DNA of 64,000 bases from positions 9,861-73,860 of IMG/VR virus record IMGVR_UViG_3300010413_000017. One strand, 5' to 3'. The notes below the pieces were generated by a model. It ran no database searches. It saw only the letters and a list, made by a program, of their open reading frames with translations, and had not been told where the DNA came from. This stretch comes from a virus. Made by a program: the position numbers and the translations under genes. Below are positions 18,703-56,017 of this stretch, piece by piece (position 1 is the first letter of the stretch; every line of letters starts with the position of its first letter).

Positions 18703-19545
18703 TCACGTTTTTGTTTGGTGTGTAACCAAACATGTTTTTAAATAAGTGGCTAACTCTCCTTTTGGACAACAGGCGTGCCAAGAAGGGTCATCACAAATAT
18801 CTTCTATACCTTTGCCTTTTACTGTATGAGCAACCAGAGCAAACGGCTGACTGTAGTGCCTAGAATTAATATACTTGAATGCTTCAAGAAGTGAGGCAAA
18901 GTCATGTCCGTCGCATACGGCCGTCCTCCACCCAAAAGCGGAAAACTTTTCTTGGATGTTGTCTAGCGGTATAAAGTTGTCTGTAAAATCTGTCGCACAT
19001 ATTCCATTCCTGTCTATGATCGCTACTAGGTTGTTCAACCTGTGAGCGGCGGCGAAATCTGCGGCTTCCCATATTTGTCCCTCGTAGCACTCTCCATCAC
19101 CTAGAAGAGCGAACACAGTATTGTTTTTTCTGTCAAGCTTTAACGCCTTGGCCATCCCACACGCATATGAGAGTCCATGCCCGAGACTTCCGGTTGTAAA
19201 TTCGACTCCGGGCACGTCATGTTGCAAATGAACTCCAAATTTCCCCCCTGCTTGACAGAACGTATCTGTCCAATTACGTGGAAAGAACGCGAGGTCGGAC
19301 AGAACGGCGTAAAGAATTGGAGAGGCTTGTCCTTTACTCAACACAAAGTAGTCACGCTTATCAGAATCTACACTAACTTCTCGCATGACTTGGTAATACA
19401 ATGCCACAAGAATTTCCACGCAGGAAAACGAGCTTGTAATATGCCCTGTTTCTGCTTGGCAACACATATCATACGTCACTGTGCGTAAATGGTGAGCCTT
19501 TTCTGTCAAGTATTCTGTGAGCTGTTTGTGGAGTTCGTTCGTCAT
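18703..19545 (-). CDS. Transketolase-like protein, N-terminal TPP-binding subunit
   Basis: GH..SSFS.VEIL, RD.FVLSKG, TGSLGHGL, GDGE..EG..WEA...N TPP motif, TVKGKG. Confidence 0.92.
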   Translation of the reverse strand: MTNELHKQLTEYLTEKAHHLRTVTYDMCCQAETGHITSSFSCVEILVALYYQVMREVSVDSDKRDYFVLSKGQASPILYAVLSDLAFFPRNWTDTFCQAGGKFGVHLQHDVPGVEFTTGSLGHGLSYACGMAKALKLDRKNNTVFALLGDGECYEGQIWEAADFAAAHRLNNLVAIIDRNGICATDFTDNFIPLDNIQEKFSAFGWRTAVCDGHDFASLLEAFKYINSRHYSQPFALVAHTVKGKGIEDICDDPSWHACCPKGELATYLKTCLVTHQTKT

Positions 19546-20960
19546 GTGAGTAGATTCCTTTCCAAAGTCTGTGTTGTCATAAATTCAATGTGCTCCTTTG
19601 TATCACGCCCAAATCCATACTCTACTAGTCTTAGGTAGTAGGGGTTAGTGAAGTATGTTGTGAAAGCATAATCTCTAAACGCTAGAACATCTCTAGCCGC
19701 TAGTGTTTCTGTAGGTAGGGGTAACGTTTCTTTGGCGTATTGGCTGTAGCCTTGCCACGTCTTGGGTAAGTCGAGCGCTTGCTCGACTGCTTGTAGATGG
19801 AGTTGGCTACCCGGGTAGGCCATCGCACAATAGAAATTAGCCCACTCAGAACATATGTACTGTGCCAAGTGGAGAGTTTGTAACATGGTGTCCCATGTAT
19901 CTTGGGGAAAGCCGAACATCCAATTAGCATTAATACAAATTCCTGCCTCGTGGGTTAGGTTAGACACCTCTACTATTTTGTTTGTCCAATTACCCGCGCT
20001 CTTTGTCTTTCCCGTTTCGTACGCTATTTTGTTGTTACCAGTTTCAAACCCGTAACACAGCCACTTAATTCCTATACTGCGTATGTTCTGTAGCATAGCG
20101 GAATCAACTGTATCAACACTTGCGTAGGCCCAGATGTTCAGTTCGTCAAGGTCAAACTTTTCTTGTTCAGCTTTATGTTTTACAGCGGCACAGATGTCAC
20201 TGACATGTTTTTTGTTAAGGGTGAAGTTTTCATCTAGGATGCGAATGTTGTAGATATCTTGCTTCACCCATTCAAAAAGCTCGTCCGCTACAACTTGGGG
20301 TGACTTGTACCTAACTTGCCTAGAACCCCTAAACATAGCATGAATTACGCAGAAAGAGCATTTTCTCGGGCAACCCAAGGAGGTAAAGAGAACTCCGTAT
20401 GGGCTTCTGTCATAAATGCGTCCAAAGCAGTGCCAGTTGTGGGCACGATATTCCACCAAGGGTAATAAATCCCACGCAGGACGTGGAAGCAGGTCCAGCT
20501 CAGGAAAGTTCTCGCTGTAGACGACTCCAGATAACTCATGGGCTTGGACTATAACATCGAATCCTTCTCCGACTATAACAGCGTCAGCGTTTGTTTTAAG
20601 AAGGGTTAGTTCTGGGAGTGCGGAGGGATGAAGCCCGTGAATGATAGTTTTAATGCCATAATGAGTGAGAGGGAAGGAGATGTGTGGGACACTAACCATG
20701 CTTTGTGTGGAGGCAGAAGGATTGTGGCCACACACAGAAATAACAACTGCTGTCGGTTTGAGTTCTAGGATTCTCCACAACAACTCGCTGTATGTTAGGT
20801 TCTCCACTTCATTGTCGATGAGAGCAACATCAACGCCTCTCTGACGACACTGGGCGGCAAGTAGAGCCGCCCAAATAGGAGGCTCTATGGCTGTTAGATT
20901 AAAATCATCTAAGACTCCGTACACTTGTTTTTTGCTTGAGGGTCTGACTATAACTATCAT
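19542..20960 (-). CDS. B12-binding radical SAM protein (class B methyltransferase-like)
   Basis: N-terminal cobalamin-binding domain (HPSALP, GEG), CPRKCSFC, DENF, GFE, YPGS. Confidence 0.9.
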   Translation of the reverse strand: MIVIVRPSSKKQVYGVLDDFNLTAIEPPIWAALLAAQCRQRGVDVALIDNEVENLTYSELLWRILELKPTAVVISVCGHNPSASTQSMVSVPHISFPLTHYGIKTIIHGLHPSALPELTLLKTNADAVIVGEGFDVIVQAHELSGVVYSENFPELDLLPRPAWDLLPLVEYRAHNWHCFGRIYDRSPYGVLFTSLGCPRKCSFCVIHAMFRGSRQVRYKSPQVVADELFEWVKQDIYNIRILDENFTLNKKHVSDICAAVKHKAEQEKFDLDELNIWAYASVDTVDSAMLQNIRSIGIKWLCYGFETGNNKIAYETGKTKSAGNWTNKIVEVSNLTHEAGICINANWMFGFPQDTWDTMLQTLHLAQYICSEWANFYCAMAYPGSQLHLQAVEQALDLPKTWQGYSQYAKETLPLPTETLAARDVLAFRDYAFTTYFTNPYYLRLVEYGFGRDTKEHIEFMTTQTLERNLLT

Positions 20961-38558: not shown

Positions 38559-38621
38559 TTTGTTCTCCTTTTCGTGTACAAAGTTGTCCGCCACGCCGAA
38601 TCCGGTCAATCATATAAGGGG

Positions 38622-38692
38622 CAGGGGAATCTGGACTCGAACCAGAAATGTGAGGTCCAAAACCTCACGTGTTACCTTTACACCATTCCCCT
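38622..38692 (-). tRNA. tRNA-Gln (anticodon TTG)
   Basis: Acceptor AGGGGAA/TTCCCCT, anticodon arm TGAGG-TTTTGGA-CCTCA, T-arm TCTGG-TTCGAGT-CCAGA; CCA not encoded. Confidence 0.9.
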
Positions 38693-38700
38693 CTTTTAGT

Positions 38701-38777
38701 TGGTACGGGCAGAGGGATTCGAACCCCCGACAACGTGGCCCCAAACCACGCACTCTACCAGACTGAGCTATGCCCGT
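38701..38777 (-). tRNA. tRNA-Pro (anticodon TGG)
   Basis: Acceptor ACGGGCA/TGCCCGT, CGTGG-TTTGGGG-CCACG, TTCGAAT T-loop, ACCA end. Confidence 0.92.
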
Positions 38778-38778
38778 A

Positions 38779-38898
38779 CTATCGTAGTAATCCACTGTCG
38801 AACAACTCAAGAATCCACTCTACGACCATGCTACCTACCATGGCAGAGAGGAGTATGACAATTGTGACGATCAGGAAAAATCGTGTATAGTCTCTCAA
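38779..38898 (-). CDS. Small membrane peptide (39 aa, not in ORF track)
   Basis: TTG start; FFLIVTIVILLSAMVGSMVVEWIL; fills the gap before tRNA-Pro. Confidence 0.35.
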   Translation of the reverse strand: MRDYTRFFLIVTIVILLSAMVGSMVVEWILELFDSGLLR

Positions 38899-38900
38899 TT

Positions 38901-39146
38901 TCAACCGTCCTTGGAGCGGAACGAGGGATACGAACCCTCATCTTTAGACGGGAAGTCTAACGTTTTACTTAAACTAGTTCCGCTTGGTTGTTCAATCGCT
39001 CGTTCGATGGCACACCTAACAAGAGGGATAAGTATGTCTAGACAACGTGTGCAATAGAGGTCAGGTAAATCGTAGCCTTGTTCAGCTAATGCAACAACAT
39101 CGTCAATTAAGTCCCCGCAACCTTGGCAAAAAACATTTATGGTCAT
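38901..39146 (-). CDS. Zinc-finger hypothetical protein whose 3' end contains tRNA-Gly
   Basis: ATGA-coupled to the resolvase, GGAGG RBS, CQGC...CTRC. Confidence 0.55.
   Translation of the reverse strand: MTINVFCQGCGDLIDDVVALAEQGYDLPDLYCTRCLDILIPLVRCAIERAIEQPSGTSLSKTLDFPSKDEGSYPSFRSKDG
38912..38983 (-). tRNA. tRNA-Gly (anticodon TCC), nested in CDS 38901-39146
   Basis: GCGGAAC/GTTCCGC acceptor, U73, CCA; TTAGA-CTTCCCG-TCTAA; GAGGG-TTCGTAT-CCCTC; short D-loop. Confidence 0.85.
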
Positions 39147-41177: not shown

Positions 41178-41422
41178 CAGTCTTCCTCTTTTTGTTTACT
41201 GCCCTGCGGATTTGTCATAGGCGTACCGTCAGGGAACAGTACGAAATCTTCCTTTTGTTTAACCCAGTTGCACGGGCCATACTGACGTTCGAATTCGCGT
41301 ATAAATTCGCGCCTGTCCTGTTCTTCAAGATGACGAAAGAACGCGTCAGTCCACTTCTTCCAGAGCTTCTTAATTTTATCCACAGTTACTCCATCCACAA
41401 AAAGGATTAGGACAAGTTTCAC
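41177..41422 (-). CDS. Hypothetical protein
   Basis: Overlaps the 3' end of nrdJ; GAGGGA RBS. Confidence 0.45.
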   Translation of the reverse strand: MKLVLILFVDGVTVDKIKKLWKKWTDAFFRHLEEQDRREFIREFERQYGPCNWVKQKEDFVLFPDGTPMTNPQGSKQKEED

Positions 41423-43649
41423 ATCCCTCTTTTGCTACCAAGATTTCTCCGCAATCTGGGCACATCTTAGCGTCCCCAGGTAGTACTCGGGTTGAGCGGT
41501 AGATTTCTAATTCATCCTCTGGAGCACTGGGGCTGGCGGCAGGAATCGAACCCGCGACCGTCTCATTACAAGTGAGGCGCTCTACCTGCTGAGCTACGCC
41601 AGCCCGTGCTTGTTGCTCTTGGGTTTGTTGGCTTTGTAACTTTCTCTTGCGAATGACTTTTGCAATGCCGTCAGGGGGGGATAAGACTTGTTCTCCATTG
41701 TGGAACATTACACGCTCGCCGCCGATGCCCCGCAACTGCTTCTCGATGTCTTCCCACGACGCTCCATACTTAAGTGCAAGTGTCCCGAGGCGTCCGACAG
41801 CGTCGTTCATCGCCGCAATAGTTCTACCTGATTTAGAAATCTGAGTCCACATTTCTTTAAACCCTGTATTAGAGTCTTCAAACAGATGCACCCAAAGAGT
41901 GCCGTCCCCAGTCTTAACTCTATCTCTGGACCCAGCTAGAAATTCAGGGGTTTCTAGAGTTACAGAAGACGTATATGACGCATGTTCTGCCTTTTTAGTA
42001 TGGCGTAGGCTGGGTGGGAGAGATTTGATAATATCCCTGTATGCTTTTGTATCTCGTTGGGCTTCCTCTTCTCGACTCCCCTGTCGGTAGAAAGTGATGC
42101 CCTTGCACCCAAGTTTATACGCGAGCCTGAAAGCTCTGTCCACTTCCTCGATAGTTACAGAACTGGGAGCGTTGATAGTCTTGCTTACAGCATTGTCTGT
42201 ATATTTTTGGAAAGCGGCCTGCATCTTAACATGATGTTCGATTGGGACGTCCTTAGATTCGATGAAATAGTCGGGACATTTTATCCCTTCATTGATGGCT
42301 TGCCAGTCCTCGTATAGAGGATGCATTACGACCAGCGTTTCATCTATTGCTTTTTTCTCGTAGACGAATGAGAATACTGGCTCAATCCCCGAGCTACACC
42401 CGGCTATTAAACTGAGTGTGCCTGTAGGAGCTATCGTTGTAACCGTCCCGTTTCTGCGGTCAATAAGGGGTGTATCCTTGCGCCCAGAAGGTAAGTCTGC
42501 CCAAGCTGGGTATCCTTTTTCCTTAGCTAACTCTGTAGAACAGAGATGAGCTACGTCATTAACGAATTGCATCACCTGTTCAGCTAGGACTAGAGCCGTT
42601 TCCATGTCATAACGTATTCGCATCTTAATAAGCATGTCAGCCCAGCCCATAACACCTAGCCCTATTTTGCGGAACTTTGTTGTTTCTCGTTTTATTTCGA
42701 TAATTGGGTAATTATTAACGTCAATTACGTTATCAAGAAAACGGACGGCTGTTTGCACAACCTCCATGAGCCTGTCCCACTGGATTGCGGGGAATATTGT
42801 TCCGGTATCTTCATTTAGTAAAGGCTCAACAAAATTACTTAGATTGATGCTTCCTAAAACACAAGACTCATAAGGGGACAACGGTTGCTCCCCACAAGGA
42901 TTTGTGGCTGTAATCTTTTGATACTTTCCGACAGGGTTAGTCTCGTTAACCTTGTCTATAAAGACAATGCCCGGTTCTCCGTTCTTCCATGCGCCGTCGA
43001 TTATACTCGCCCAAATGTAATCTACGTGTGGATACCCTGTCAAGGCGACCTTATCCATGAAATCATCTGTTAAAGCAACCGAGATATTGAAATGTCTCAA
43101 CTCTCCTTCTTTTTCTTTGCACTTAATAAACTCGAGAACATCTGGATGGTCACAGCGTAGAATACCCATCTGCGCTCCTTTGCGAACTCCTCCCTGCTCA
43201 ATTATTTCTCCTACAACAAAGTCAAAGACACGCATAAATCCAACAGGTCCAGAGGCTTTGCCTTTTGTTGTACTAATTAATGAACCGCGCGGTCGGAGAT
43301 TCGAGAAATCGTAACCTGTGCCTCCACCGAAAGCCTGAACTTCGACTGCGTCTGTGAGAGCTTTAAAAATAGACTGACGAGAATCTTCGATTGGGATAAC
43401 AAAGCAGGCGGCTAAGTTACCGTGATTGGCTCCTGCGTTCCGCAGGGTGGGGGAGTTGGGAAGAAAATCCAAATTGGACATTACTGAGTAGAACTCTTGT
43501 TCCCAGTAGTCCTTGTCCTTTTCCACAGAGGCGATATGGCGTGCTACACGCCTGAACATCTCTTCCGGTGCTTCAATAACGTTGCCACGTGCATCCTGCT
43601 GTAGAATCCGCTTTTCTAAAACTCGAATCGCGTTAGCCGACAGATTCAA
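41376..43649 (-). CDS. nrdJ: Class II (B12-dependent) ribonucleotide reductase with C-terminal TSCPD-like domain and zinc ribbon
   Basis: FLPNSPTL.NAG, ACFV, TNPCGEQPL...SC.LGSIN, TIAPTGT, DNAVSKTIN; C-terminal CPDCG...C..C....CGWSNC. Confidence 0.95.
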   Translation of the reverse strand: MNLSANAIRVLEKRILQQDARGNVIEAPEEMFRRVARHIASVEKDKDYWEQEFYSVMSNLDFLPNSPTLRNAGANHGNLAACFVIPIEDSRQSIFKALTDAVEVQAFGGGTGYDFSNLRPRGSLISTTKGKASGPVGFMRVFDFVVGEIIEQGGVRKGAQMGILRCDHPDVLEFIKCKEKEGELRHFNISVALTDDFMDKVALTGYPHVDYIWASIIDGAWKNGEPGIVFIDKVNETNPVGKYQKITATNPCGEQPLSPYESCVLGSINLSNFVEPLLNEDTGTIFPAIQWDRLMEVVQTAVRFLDNVIDVNNYPIIEIKRETTKFRKIGLGVMGWADMLIKMRIRYDMETALVLAEQVMQFVNDVAHLCSTELAKEKGYPAWADLPSGRKDTPLIDRRNGTVTTIAPTGTLSLIAGCSSGIEPVFSFVYEKKAIDETLVVMHPLYEDWQAINEGIKCPDYFIESKDVPIEHHVKMQAAFQKYTDNAVSKTINAPSSVTIEEVDRAFRLAYKLGCKGITFYRQGSREEEAQRDTKAYRDIIKSLPPSLRHTKKAEHASYTSSVTLETPEFLAGSRDRVKTGDGTLWVHLFEDSNTGFKEMWTQISKSGRTIAAMNDAVGRLGTLALKYGASWEDIEKQLRGIGGERVMFHNGEQVLSPPDGIAKVIRKRKLQSQQTQEQQARAGVAQQVERLTCNETVAGSIPAASPSAPEDELEIYRSTRVLPGDAKMCPDCGEILVAKEGCETCPNPFCGWSNCG
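41528..41603 (-). tRNA. tRNA-Thr (anticodon TGT), nested sense-strand inside nrdJ
   Basis: GCTGGCG/CGCCAGC acceptor, GCTC/GAGC D-stem with GG, CCTCA-CTTGTAA-TGAGA, GCGGG-TTCGATT-CCTGC, CCA; 76 nt. Confidence 0.92.
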
Positions 43650-43661
43650 TAAACTACCTCC

Positions 43662-43691
43662 AAAAAGGGCACTAGTTTTTACTAGTGCCCT
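43662..43691 (-). terminator. Intrinsic terminator-like hairpin immediately upstream of the nrdJ RBS
   Basis: AGGGCACTAGT-AAAA-ACTAGTGCCCT (11 bp) followed by TTTT and then GGAGG. Confidence 0.65.
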
Positions 43692-52808: not shown

Positions 52809-55472
52809 TTATAGCCCGTTGGGGGCGTACTTCCCATCTAAAAACTCAGTATAGGGAACCTTTTTCTTAGTTGACCAAGGAGCGTCGATATCACACAACT
52901 CGAACTCAACTTCGAGTGGCACGTTACACCAAGAATGTACTTGCAACGCCCTTTCAGACATAATCCAGTTCGCCATAGTCACAACTCGATGAAGTTCCTC
53001 TGGCTGAACACTCAGCAAAATACAATCGTGAATCTGGCCGAGGATAACTGAACTTAGCCTGTCTTTTTTTAGAAACTTGCTGAGTTCTATCAGGCTCCAC
53101 AGTAAGATATGAAAAGCTGTTCCCTGAATTGGAGTGTTCAAAATCTCATTCCTAGCCAAGTAGCCTTGGCGTCTGAACCCATATTTGAGGGGTACACGAC
53201 CGGTCTTATAATAGCGTGCTACCCATTTTTCTTTCCATTTGGCGTAGGTAGAGAACTGTTTCCAGAACCTGTTCTCTTCTGCTTGAATGTGCTCTGTGAA
53301 AACATCCAAAGAAGTAAGCTTCTGGTTCATTAAATGTTCTCGTAAAGAAGAGCCGTCGGCAAGGAGTAGTTGCTCTCCGTCTTTCCAGAGTTTCTCAGCA
53401 CAAGGTCTGTACCACGAGCCGTATAACTGAGCAAAAACAAACGCTCCTTTAACAAGATTGCGTACAGCTTTTGTAATCTGGTCTCGGGGTAATAGGTATA
53501 CTCGTTCGGTCTGGTCCCTGTGCATATCTGACGTGGGGTCTTTACAGTAACGAATAAGTTCAGGGTCTTGGGTGAACGTTGCCGCAATCCGGACTTCGTG
53601 CATTCCAAAGTCTATTTCAAGAAGTTGTTGGCCGTGATGAGGAAACATACCGCTTCGCACAAGCTGAGTCATACGCTCGTCGCGAGCTGGAATGTTTTGT
53701 AAATTAGGACGGCTCGATGAACCTCGATATGTTCTTACTCTGTGAAGATGGAAAAAGGGATGTAAAGTCTCCTTATAGATTTCACGGATAATCCCTTTTA
53801 TATAGGTAGATTCAGTTTTAGTTGCACTACGGAGTCGAGTTACATCAATCAAGAAAGAGCGTAGACTCTGTTGTGGAAGAGTCCGAGAGAACTCCTCAAT
53901 GTCCTCTTTGTCTAAGGTGGGATTTCCCTTCGCTGACTTCTTCCTAGGTTCGATCCCAACATAGTCAAAGAGAAGAGTTTTGAGTTGTGGAGCAGACCCG
54001 GGGTTAAGTGGAACGCCTGTCTTCTTTTCCCATAACCGAGCGTAGTGAGAGTCCATGACTCTCGCTTTTGCGGCCTTGCTCTCCTCTGAGATAGTGGTAA
54101 ACGCTTCTTGGAATACCTCAGAGGAAGCTCTAAAGCCTGTTATTTCGCAGTCAAGCAACGCCAAAGAACCTTCGTGAAAGAATTCGTATGCTTTGGGTAG
54201 TTTGCTTTCCAACTGCATTTCTGCCATTTGGTCGAGTGCTAATCTGTGAGCGAGCATGGCGTCCAAGGCGTTCCGCAGAAGTAACTTGTCAATCGGACAT
54301 TCTTTGACTCTGTTCACTCCATTGGCTGTCTCTGTCTTCATGTAGGGGCTAGTTTCATCTTTGAACCCCACAACACCGTAGCGCACAAACGCCTGAAACT
54401 CCAAACTAGTTATTCCATGTCTGTCGTCCAGCACATGCGAAGCTAGCTGAGAGCACCAACGCCAATTAGCAATCTCTGTTCCCAAAATTATCCTAGCCCA
54501 GAGTTCCTCAAACTTAAAATTGTGGGCGGTCTTACCGATGCTTTTCTCTTTTATCACTCGCAGTAGCGCTGGAACAACTTCGGGAGTAACAGGGAAGGAA
54601 ACTCCGTGTTCAGGGTTCCATGCTAAGGCACAAGTGACAATCTCATGGTCTGGGGCGAAGGGCTTGAGTCCCGTTGTTTCCCAGTCTAGAGTCAACAGAG
54701 GAGGCTTATTCTCGACTAGGTTATCTAACAAACTGATAATGTCTCCTTGCTGATAAAGACACTCGACTTTGTCTGCTTCGTTTGTCAGGTCTGGAAAAGG
54801 TCTAAGTGCCTTTTCAATCGCTACCCCCATCTTGAGTTTATAAATCTCGATGAGTTTGCTATTCATTCCGTATTGAAAAAAGGACGGATGATATTGCGGA
54901 ATAACCCAACATCCTAGTGTCCTGTCTGGAATGGCCCAATCTGCCCACTGTGATATTGCAGGGCGTTCTCCACTAATGTCTAATGGCAGCATGTAGGATT
55001 GTAGTGGGACACGCCCCGCGATAATAATAGCCTTGGGTTTGAACTCTCTGATACGCTTCCAAGTTCCTGCGTGGCAGAGTGCAACCTCTCTGTCAGTTGG
55101 GCTCCTATTGCTACCCCGCTCACCGATTGGACGACACCGCACAGCATTGAGTTTACAGAAGTCAACATCTAAGTCGTAACCTAACGGAGCAAGAACATCG
55201 TTTCTAAGGAGCTGACCTGCGCTCCCGCACAACTGGTATCCTCTTTCATCTTCTGTTGCGCCTTGTGCTTCGCTCAAAAAGAGTATGCCTGTCCTGCCCT
55301 CTCCTGTAATCCCCATCATCGGGTGTTTGTTAGTTTTATACATGCCGCACTCTTCGCAGGGAGGAAGGTCTGGCTTTTTCGCTTTAGTGGAAGTTCTCTT
55401 CGTTGCCTTTCTTTTGGGCTTTGTCGGGGTGAGTTCAACATCTTCTAATTCAAAAAACCCTTTTCGCCTCAT
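52809..55472 (-). CDS. polA: Family A DNA polymerase with N-terminal uracil-DNA-glycosylase-like domain and 3'-5' exonuclease
   Basis: C..C, EAQG..ED, NAVRCRP, HPS (family 4 UDG-like); DWETTG, HN.KFE exonuclease; PNLQNIP, DF...EVR, K..F...YG, NTPIQG, QIHD. Confidence 0.93.
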   Translation of the reverse strand: MRRKGFFELEDVELTPTKPKRKATKRTSTKAKKPDLPPCEECGMYKTNKHPMMGITGEGRTGILFLSEAQGATEDERGYQLCGSAGQLLRNDVLAPLGYDLDVDFCKLNAVRCRPIGERGSNRSPTDREVALCHAGTWKRIREFKPKAIIIAGRVPLQSYMLPLDISGERPAISQWADWAIPDRTLGCWVIPQYHPSFFQYGMNSKLIEIYKLKMGVAIEKALRPFPDLTNEADKVECLYQQGDIISLLDNLVENKPPLLTLDWETTGLKPFAPDHEIVTCALAWNPEHGVSFPVTPEVVPALLRVIKEKSIGKTAHNFKFEELWARIILGTEIANWRWCSQLASHVLDDRHGITSLEFQAFVRYGVVGFKDETSPYMKTETANGVNRVKECPIDKLLLRNALDAMLAHRLALDQMAEMQLESKLPKAYEFFHEGSLALLDCEITGFRASSEVFQEAFTTISEESKAAKARVMDSHYARLWEKKTGVPLNPGSAPQLKTLLFDYVGIEPRKKSAKGNPTLDKEDIEEFSRTLPQQSLRSFLIDVTRLRSATKTESTYIKGIIREIYKETLHPFFHLHRVRTYRGSSSRPNLQNIPARDERMTQLVRSGMFPHHGQQLLEIDFGMHEVRIAATFTQDPELIRYCKDPTSDMHRDQTERVYLLPRDQITKAVRNLVKGAFVFAQLYGSWYRPCAEKLWKDGEQLLLADGSSLREHLMNQKLTSLDVFTEHIQAEENRFWKQFSTYAKWKEKWVARYYKTGRVPLKYGFRRQGYLARNEILNTPIQGTAFHILLWSLIELSKFLKKDRLSSVILGQIHDCILLSVQPEELHRVVTMANWIMSERALQVHSWCNVPLEVEFELCDIDAPWSTKKKVPYTEFLDGKYAPNGL

Positions 55473-56017
55473 AAACCTAACCCCTTTTGTGCTTGTATGT
55501 CGTTTCCCCACACATCCCATCCCTTTACTTTACGTCTAGCGAATAACTCAATGTAAGGAGGATGAGATACAACCTCAATCATTTGACGCATAACTTCGGG
55601 TTTGACAGAATGCTCAGTTCGGGGTGCTAAAAATGCTGTTCTACCTTGGGCTCGTTTCCCCGAGATGTCTTGCTTATACGGCAACGTCTTATGGGTTCCA
55701 AATAAACAGTGCTCAGTCATCCCGCGAAAGTACTGTCCCAAACCTATTCTATCCTTAATCCAAGTAATACAAGTTTTGTAAACAAAATCCCACCGTCCCA
55801 TGATTTCTATAGCGTGAGGTAAGTAGTTATTTGTCGTCCATAGGTAGAGGTGACAACCCTCGGGATGAATTAAGGTATTGACAGGAAGACTCATTATTTC
55901 TTTAATGGACATAAGCGGGTAGTGGCGATCTGCCCCACGCTTAATCTTGCCTCCGCCGTATTCAGGCCAAGGCGGGTCGACATAGATTGTCTTATATTTA
56001 CCTTTTGGAAAATCCAC
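55469..56017 (-). CDS. MT-A70 family N6-adenine methyltransferase
   Basis: DPPW, HY..M, LYLWTTN, G.G.YFR..TEH, HS.KP, IELFAR...GW..WGN. Confidence 0.92.
   Translation of the reverse strand: MDFPKGKYKTIYVDPPWPEYGGGKIKRGADRHYPLMSIKEIMSLPVNTLIHPEGCHLYLWTTNNYLPHAIEIMGRWDFVYKTCITWIKDRIGLGQYFRGMTEHCLFGTHKTLPYKQDISGKRAQGRTAFLAPRTEHSVKPEVMRQMIEVVSHPPYIELFARRKVKGWDVWGNDIQAQKGLGL

Follow-up and report, generated by a model that had tools for sequence, protein, structure and literature searches.

We report here a complete transfer RNA (tRNA) gene, tRNA-Thr(UGU), that lies on the sense strand inside an open reading frame (ORF), that of nrdJ, a phage gene for class II (B12-dependent) ribonucleotide reductase (RNR), and that is read through in frame between two domains of the encoded protein. 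The DNA analysed, referred to below as the window, is a stretch of 64,000 nucleotides comprising positions 9861-73860 of the 73.9-kb IMG/VR contig IMGVR_UViG_3300010413_000017, which is estimated to be 79% complete and belongs to a tailed phage. That the nested tRNA and the intact ORF around it are real we regard as almost certain, and that the same bases act both as a functional tRNA and as part of a read-through NrdJ as probable. The features at the centre of this account, with positions counted from the first base of the window, are as follows.

41528..41603, minus strand: tRNA-Thr(UGU), 76 nt with encoded CCA, identified by ARAGORN, by an Rfam score of 66.4 bits and by covariation with its counterpart in a related IMG/VR contig (L005).
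41528..41603, minus strand: the same bases read as nrdJ codons 683-707 plus one base.
41568..41570, minus strand: the anticodon TGT (tRNA positions 34-36), which is at the same time a Cys codon, TGT, of nrdJ.
41376..43649, minus strand: nrdJ, class II (B12-dependent) RNR, 757 codons and a stop, with a TTG start after GGAGG and 65% amino acid identity to the NrdJ of L005.

ARAGORN called the tRNA-Thr (anticodon tgt) at 41528..41603 on the minus strand, and against the Rfam family RF00005, for which the gathering score is 29, the sequence scored 66.4 bits (E 4.8e-13) over the full model (model positions 1-71), the highest value among the four tRNAs of the record. With stems of 7, 4, 5, and 5 bp, 20 of 21 stem pairs are formed, the sole mismatch being C27-A43; U8, A14, G18G19, U33, A37, G53-C61, T54-T55-C56, and A58 are in place, the Levitt pair is G15:C48, and CCA directly follows the discriminator base C73. 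The element thus has the marks of the tRNA family, namely a cloverleaf scoring above threshold together with the conserved loop and tertiary nucleotides. The identity set of threonyl-tRNA synthetase (ThrRS) for E. coli tRNA-Thr consists of G1-C72, C2-G71, G35, and U36, all of which are present in this tRNA, whose acceptor stem is GCUGGCG/CGCCAGC. The tRNA is flanked by no direct repeats, hence by no target-site duplication. Because the score is far over the threshold and two related viral contigs carry a high-scoring tRNA in nrdJ, a chance resemblance can be excluded.

The initial annotation had described a complete, canonical 76-nt tRNA-Thr(UGU) with encoded CCA, placed on the sense strand after a Gln-rich spacer in the linker from the TSCPD domain to the Cys-rich C-terminal domain and translated in frame without stops; ARAGORN and Rfam agree on the tRNA, Pfam and the ORF positions agree on its place, and the ORF at 41376..43649 confirms the reading of the tRNA as AGVAQQVERLTCNETVAGSIPAASP. 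Of the three sense frames through the tRNA, two contain stops, and the single one that stays open is the frame of nrdJ. Fifty more codons follow the tRNA, including those of the conserved six-Cys domain, which is in frame only via translation through the tRNA. The layout of the gene from its start to its end is given here.

43419..43646, minus strand: RNR all-alpha N-terminal domain, residues 2-77 (Pfam PF00317, Ribonuc_red_lgN, 1.3e-23).
42060..43412, minus strand: catalytic ten-stranded barrel, about residues 80-530 (Pfam PF02867, Ribonuc_red_lgC, 2.6e-109).
41925..42059, minus strand: linker 1, from barrel to TSCPD domain, without a tRNA in the window; the homologous linker of the related contig L006 holds a tRNA-Asp(GUC).
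41646..41924, minus strand: TSCPD domain, residues 576-668 (Pfam PF12637, 34.9 bits against a cut-off of 22.8), with predicted local distance difference test (pLDDT) scores of 70-87.
41604..41645, minus strand: Gln-rich upstream piece of linker 2, doubling as the 5' leader of the tRNA.
41463..41527, minus strand: downstream piece of linker 2 (SAPEDELEIYRSTRVLPGDAKM), doubling as the 3' trailer of the tRNA.
41379..41462, minus strand: six-cysteine C-terminal domain (cysteine-rich domain, or Zn ribbon), aligned in all relatives, with pLDDT 72-76.

The protein has the composition of a class II NrdJ, in that the N-terminal and barrel domains with the catalytic residues are followed by TSCPD and then by a terminal six-Cys tail, and adenosylcobalamin-dependent activity is inferred from this family membership. 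In the barrel, Cys82, Asn250/Cys252/Glu254 (NPCGE), and Cys263 are invariant columns of the subfamily alignment, and the last 28 residues carry six cysteines in the arrangement CPDC-x10-C-x2-C-x4-C-x4-C. The six-Cys tail of NrdJ binds zinc and is required for catalytic turnover (Loderer et al. 2017, PMC5704485), which accords with the weight that had been placed on the C-terminal cysteines at the outset. Since the tail must stay attached for turnover, the protein needs ribosomes that read through the tRNA. A Met codon precedes CPDC in both of the genes that bear a nested tRNA-Thr, in the window and in L005; separate translation of the six-Cys tail was considered and dropped, as L005 has no ribosome-binding site there. 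At the other end of the gene, a 10-bp hairpin (GGGCACTAGT/ACTAGTGCCC) followed by TTTTT was read by eye at about 43662-43690 on the minus strand, after the upstream ORF and ahead of the nrdJ start, GGAGG-TTG; it resembles an intrinsic terminator and was not listed by the consensus scan.

The tRNA makes up 25 of the approximately 61 residues of linker 2. In an AlphaFold model of the last 228 residues, pLDDT falls below 50 at residues 684-724, which covers all of the tRNA-coded residues 683-707 except the first; the segment lies between two well-modelled domains, and the tRNA thus occupies a disordered tether. The linker hosting the tRNA is modelled as disordered and varies in length among homologues. 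In two phage NrdJ proteins of about 40% identity that have the same succession of TSCPD, linker, and CPxC tail (L002 and L003), the linkers are free of tRNA and range from about 17 to about 45 residues. Part of the downstream piece of linker 2, EIYR.TRVLPG, is shared with the homologue P0010, whose linker has no stretch compatible with a tRNA in a test made on the peptide. The initial annotation had asked of the homologues whether the linker is an insertion; the length of the linker varies widely among them, and a tRNA is present in some homologues only.

The subfamily around this NrdJ was defined by a C-terminal profile with a TSCPD domain of the 'LWVHLFED' type, and DNA was compared for six of its members. 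It is small, as only seven clusters exceeded 230 bits among 1.84 billion representatives, the next reaching 138. The L005 contig (IMG/VR, 140 kb, 92% complete) carries a tRNA-Thr(UGU) of 59.1 bits in the same linker, where it abuts CPDC, and L006 carries a tRNA-Asp(GUC) of 68.1 bits, with CCA, inside nrdJ in the other linker, from barrel to TSCPD; in both contigs the nrdJ ORF is intact around the nested tRNA. Synteny around nrdJ links the phage of the window to that of L005, both having the order o219, nrdJ, a PNK-like gene, RusA, the tRNA cluster, and SbcC. Nested tRNAs were not found in the nrdJ genes of the relatives L008, L009, and L010 recovered in the metagenome scan, nor inside the gene at about 85 further nrdJ loci of IMG/VR phages. 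When the linkers of L006, L008, L009, and L010 were searched with Rfam at relaxed settings, no decayed tRNA remnants were detected. A search of IMG/VR with the acceptor and T arms of the tRNA-Thr returned only the L005 contig. Among INPHARED phages there was no relative of the window nrdJ, and the tRNA matched intergenic phage tRNA-Thr genes at 80-88%.

For two further homologues, P0002 and P0009, the linker peptide was tested for back-translation into a cloverleaf. Residues 698-722 of P0002 back-translate to a cloverleaf with the anticodon UUG (Gln), for which a back-translation by hand ends in GCCA, and residues 1354-1378 of P0009 to one with the anticodon UGU (Thr). The test recovers all three true nested tRNAs and yields about one false hit per 15-20 thousand residues, with five at non-linker sites among approximately 106,000 residues; two other positives, L057 and L066, were discarded, the actual DNA not being a tRNA. 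Because of these false hits, nested tRNAs in P0002 (Gln) and P0009 (Thr) are probable rather than proven, and scans of IMG/VR with both queries found no near relatives of the two that carry such tRNAs. Taken across the clade, the insertions would have arisen by in-frame capture of a host-type tRNA gene at least three times (Thr, Asp, and probably Gln). Inteins, one or more per gene and with LAGLIDADG or Hint domains, were observed in the NrdJ genes P0003/L008, P0004/L010, P0009, and L004, and P0004 also has a small Cys-rich insert (NGGNCPKCGHKNCG) within its TSCPD domain. As the inteins fall in the same or neighbouring subfamilies, the NrdJ gene appears to collect several kinds of in-frame insertions. 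An intein or intron, as a self-removing insertion, was rejected for the window gene because the 76 nt are fully explained by the tRNA and Rfam finds a tRNA only; excision of the tRNA with religation, as an 'RNA intron', was likewise rejected, since 3 divides neither 76 nor 73 and the frame of the tail would be lost. Length and Rfam result together thus exclude a self-splicing element.

As the record comes from a metagenome and many foreign reads are attracted by tRNA sequences (seen in the bin 41507-41607), a chimeric assembly joined at the tRNA, or a sequencing error masking a stop before it, had to be considered. The stretch is present in metagenome runs of seven studies, mostly of marine sediment, although the comparison of coverage is one of assembled contigs and most of the 3-kb stretch is without listed cover; many pieces of 85-95% identity over 41528-41603 are the tRNAs of other organisms. 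Contigs from other studies are free of mismatches over 41547-41877 (X3 record 15) and 41473-41633 (X8 record 20), and one from an RNA library is so over 41466-41726 (X20 record 9), spanning the whole tRNA with 62 and 123 nt of flanks. Because contigs of three other studies thus cross the tRNA borders without a mismatch, a misassembly is rejected. The Cys-rich tail downstream is, in frame, the conserved C-terminus of every homologue, and the same architecture recurs in the independent contigs L005 and L006. An artefact is therefore so improbable as to be negligible, and of the findings that had been named as fatal to the nested tRNA, a misassembly and a stop ahead of the tRNA were not encountered, the contigs being free of mismatches and the frame intact. 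The RNA-library contig could stem from an uncut nrdJ transcript or from carried-over DNA.

Selection on the RNA was assessed by comparing the window with L005. The nrdJ genes are 62% identical in DNA, 38% at third positions, and 33% at the four-fold sites of identical residues, which are saturated, and the tRNAs are identical at 57 of 76 positions (75%) without codon periodicity. The acceptor and D stems are the same in both. The anticodon stem differs at all five of its pairs, by three double compensatory changes, one change from G-C to G-U, and one mismatch; even so, 40 of the 42 stem cells (95%) are paired, compared with 38-54% in slid controls. The 15:48 pair covaries as well, being G:C in the window and A:U in L005. 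The stems can therefore be said to covary while the frame stays open, as the initial annotation had suggested looking for, on the strength of three double changes and the 15-48 pair in a comparison of two sequences only. The D loop is one base shorter in L005, which puts the 5' half of the tRNA in another frame, where it encodes GWRSSTEEQSPCKAQ in place of the AGVAQQVERLTCNE of the window, and the 3' half gives AGSIP..ASP in both. Because the 5' half is read in different frames, it is the RNA that is conserved and not the peptide.

These comparisons bear on whether the tRNA could be a tolerated relic, that is, a non-working tRNA that entered the frame by accident and is kept since a deletion of 76 bases would shift the frame of the essential tail. 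Such a relic would find room in a linker that is disordered and variable in length, it would need no adaptation, this type of tRNA-Thr being naturally stop-free in the frame used, and it would agree with the tRNA-free state of close relatives and with the C-A mismatch in each nested tRNA-Thr. It would, however, be expected to drift as the saturated synonymous sites have done, yet the tRNA is far more similar to that of L005 than those sites are; compensatory changes have occurred, the tertiary positions, the anticodon, and the CCA are all kept, the scores equal or exceed those of the intergenic tRNAs of this phage, the linkers of relatives hold no decayed remnants, and the mismatch of L005 is found in a cellular tRNA as well. 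We consider a relic improbable.

The closest cellular counterparts are tRNA-Thr(UGU) genes in Thr-Tyr-Gly(-Thr) clusters, of the thrU-tyrU-glyT kind, in metagenome-assembled genomes (MAGs) of an Acidobacteriota (L108, 5061-5517) and of Mailhella, a member of the Desulfovibrionaceae (L109, 6986-7401). Both have the same acceptor arm, D arm, and T loop as the nested tRNA, the Mailhella gene also has the C50-A64 of the L005 T stem, and these nearest cellular tRNAs differ from that of the window in the anticodon stem. The likeness offers a faint hint as to which hosts these sediment phages may infect. For many temperate phages the site of integration is a tRNA gene, and the phage attachment site (attP) that they carry is tRNA-like. 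The nested tRNA might accordingly be an attP copy of a host tRNA-Thr gene, with nrdJ split in the prophage and restored on excision, and cellular tRNA-Thr genes that match it in acceptor arm and T loop do exist. The record (73.9 kb, 79% complete), however, gave no match to a tyrosine integrase (PF00589) and has a replication and recombination module (PolA, RecA-like, SbcCD-like, RusA, and RNR) with no lysogeny gene found; what is copied is an entire tRNA with a diverged anticodon stem and not a 3' part identical to a host gene, and no member of the NrdJ subfamily was found in the genomes of 185,579 species. An attachment site is thus very improbable.

The phage genome encodes a GpJ-like tail protein, PolA with a UDG-family domain, and RecA-like, SbcC- and SbcD-like, and RusA proteins. 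The DNA polymerase A (52809-55520, minus strand) bears its uracil-DNA-glycosylase-family (UDG) domain at the N-terminus, and a B12-binding radical-SAM protein is encoded at 19542-20960 on the minus strand, of note beside a B12-dependent RNR. ARAGORN found four tRNAs in the window, all on the minus strand and all with U34, namely Gln, Pro, and Gly at 38620-38983 and Thr at 41528-41603. In the window phage and in the L005 phage (G001) alike, the nested tRNA is the only tRNA-Thr. In the L005 contig, a tRNA with the anticodon CUA, an amber suppressor labelled Pyl by ARAGORN, was observed beside Gly(GCC) in a cluster (L096, 357-432, minus strand; G001:C1, about 77.4 kb), a hint that TAG may be read through or recoded in this phage or in the host it infects. 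ACA is the commonest Thr codon of the window phage (40%) and marks the strongest preference for an A-ending codon among the four-codon families tallied, and CAA accounts for 62% of Gln codons. A role for the nested tRNA in the usual service of phage tRNAs to phage-preferred codons fits this usage. The scan for promoters and terminators found no more sites than in shuffled sequence and none next to the tRNA-Thr, and nrdJ stands within a long array of genes on the same strand; given these two observations, the tRNA would be released from nrdJ transcripts.

A different use of the same structure is that of a switch acting in cis, in which the cloverleaf is a target of RNase P or of tRNA enzymes that sets the amount of NrdJ or the decay of its message late in infection, with the tRNA as a by-product. 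The logic is that proposed for selB-selC (Mukai 2021, Int J Mol Sci 22:4605, PMC8124441), the tail required for turnover would be lost on cleavage, and the occurrence of Thr, Asp, and probably Gln identities in one gene looks as if shape outweighed identity. Against it stand the retention of the anticodon loop, the ThrRS identity pairs, A37, and the encoded CCA, none of which a mere cleavage signal needs, the fit of the anticodon to the most used Thr codon of the phage, the lack of any other tRNA-Thr in both phages, and the tRNA-free relatives, which show that NrdJ requires no such switch. We judge it unlikely.

Our preferred reading is that 41528-41603 is dual-coding, serving as a working tRNA-Thr(UGU) of bacterial type and as 25 codons of a disordered linker that would tether the six-Cys, electron-shuttling tail to the body of the phage NrdJ. 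The insertion would be an in-frame capture in a linker that tolerates any sequence. Having no promoter of its own, the tRNA would be excised from the transcripts of nrdJ by RNase P of the host, with trimming at the 3' end. Its maturation would either compete with translation or, as is more likely, salvage a stable remnant from decaying, translated mRNA. Intact transcripts would be translated straight through to full-length, turnover-competent NrdJ, and the released tRNA would read ACA, the favourite Thr codon of the phage. That each transcript ends either as a tRNA and a non-stop message or as full-length NrdJ, as the initial annotation had it, is a reasonable model; that the tRNA is salvaged from mRNA already translated is an equally good one, and the coupling to dNTP supply that the annotation also raised is speculative. 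More tentatively, the two disordered linkers of NrdJ may be landing pads for tRNAs in these sediment phages, with the nested tRNA made from the nrdJ message and each transcript ending as tRNA or diverted from translation.

Several points weigh against a dual-coding element. The tRNA is known from sequence and assembled contigs alone, and the RNA-library contig could be carried-over DNA. The number of double changes observed was reached in 60 of 500 shuffles, and the comparison comprises the DNA of only two nested Thr tRNAs, so that the covariation statistics are thin. The likeness of these two could stem from separate captures of conserved host tRNAs and not from long selection; a neutral relic is disfavoured under either history, because one implies long retention with compensation and the other repeated insertion of the same isoacceptor at one spot. 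Each nested tRNA-Thr has one C-A stem mismatch (27-43 in the window, 50-64 in L005). G-2 and G-1, which precede the tRNA, pair with C74 and C73 (41530-41538 / 41597-41605) to give an acceptor stem of 9 bp in the precursor, which might shift or slow cleavage by RNase P, as in tRNA-His; G-1 is also present before the L005 tRNA. Cutting of translated mRNA by RNase P would waste NrdJ message. Lastly, the close relatives L008, L009, L010, and P0010-P0012 are without a nested tRNA, and since several of them do without it, the tRNA is dispensable.

The initial annotation had also raised extreme genome compaction as an explanation. In favour of this, a second tRNA of the window lies inside an ORF, but at about 85% coding by a crude ORF count the window is not unusually dense for a phage, so that compaction is weakly supported. 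The second case is a tRNA-Gly(UCC) with encoded CCA at 38912-38983 (minus strand) in an ORF of 81 codons at 38901-39146 (minus strand), which has a strong GGGAGGG ribosome-binding site and encodes a 54-residue CxxC...CxxC protein followed by the tRNA, with the stop 8 nt later. Like selC in selB, this tRNA overlaps the ORF as a C-terminal extension. Neither a PHROG match nor a homologue in the G001 loci is known for the ORF.

Outside mitochondria it is very rare for an RNA gene and a protein frame to overlap on the same strand, and the only bacterial precedent that we found is that of tRNA-Sec in SelB. If the tentative landing-pad reading is true, this would be the first canonical tRNA gene that selection maintains between two domains essential to a single protein, and it would supply a promoter-free, built-in timing of tRNA supply with the synthesis of DNA precursors. 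Because the tRNA joins two domains, the same bases would be under two constraints, with ribosomes and RNase P competing for one RNA. The gene offers a natural test bed for translation against tRNA maturation on one transcript, for the acquisition and expression of promoterless phage tRNAs, and for the tolerance of linkers. For annotation, gene callers that forbid an overlap of coding sequence and tRNA would truncate or split nrdJ, and further cases may be spotted in protein databases through peptides that derive from tRNAs, such as 'AGSIP'.

The closest known system is the selC gene (tRNA-Sec) nested in the selB ORF of Alphaproteobacteria, presented by its author as the first case of its kind, for which RNase processing to a tRNA and a non-stop message was proposed as the alternative to full-length protein (Mukai 2021, PMC8124441); no phage or RNR cases of nested tRNAs were found beside it in the literature searched. 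Like selB-selC, the nrdJ gene holds an entire sense-strand tRNA in an ORF of bacterial type, which is translated into a peptide not conserved for function, and for both an either/or processing has been proposed on bioinformatic grounds only. In selB the tRNA is a C-terminal extension after the last domain, and the protein is functional without it, whereas in nrdJ it stands between two needed domains, for which reason ribosomes must translate through it. SelB works in partnership with tRNA-Sec, whereas no link between NrdJ and its tRNA is known. What sets nrdJ apart is a tRNA that lies between two required domains, in a phage, without a functional tie to the protein, with an identity that varies among relatives (Thr, Asp, probably Gln) and with two linkers used.

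Among mitochondria, the cox1 gene of Armadillidium vulgare contains a tRNA-Lys (as cited in Mukai 2021, PMC8124441). Such mitochondrial cases, as far as they are described there, resemble nrdJ in that a full tRNA lies in direct orientation and excision and mRNA integrity are thought to be alternatives. They involve reduced tRNAs of 60 nt in extremely compact animal mitochondrial genomes, whereas the nested tRNA-Thr is of full size, canonical, and of bacterial type, has CCA, and belongs to a phage that measures at least 74 kb and has intergenic space.

Phage tRNA clusters such as the T4 tRNA region are matured by host RNase P from polycistronic transcripts and match phage-preferred codons. The window phage and G001 likewise have a Gly-Pro-Gln cluster a few kilobases downstream of nrdJ; cluster tRNAs lie between genes, whereas the tRNA-Thr is within coding sequence and translated. 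With the inteins of RNR genes (P0003/L008, P0004/L010, and L004; Pfam PF14528 and PF14890), the nested tRNA shares the character of a sporadic, in-frame, foreign insertion in the same gene family. Inteins, however, occupy conserved catalytic motifs and excise themselves from the protein, whereas the tRNA sits in a linker and has no splicing or homing machinery. In Pseudomonas aeruginosa, class II RNR is split into NrdJa and NrdJb, which shows that NrdJ can naturally be divided at the junction of the barrel with the C-terminal module. The tRNA-Asp of L006 lies at that very junction; unlike the separate ORFs of NrdJa and NrdJb, its nrdJ remains one continuous ORF in which the tRNA serves as a spacer.

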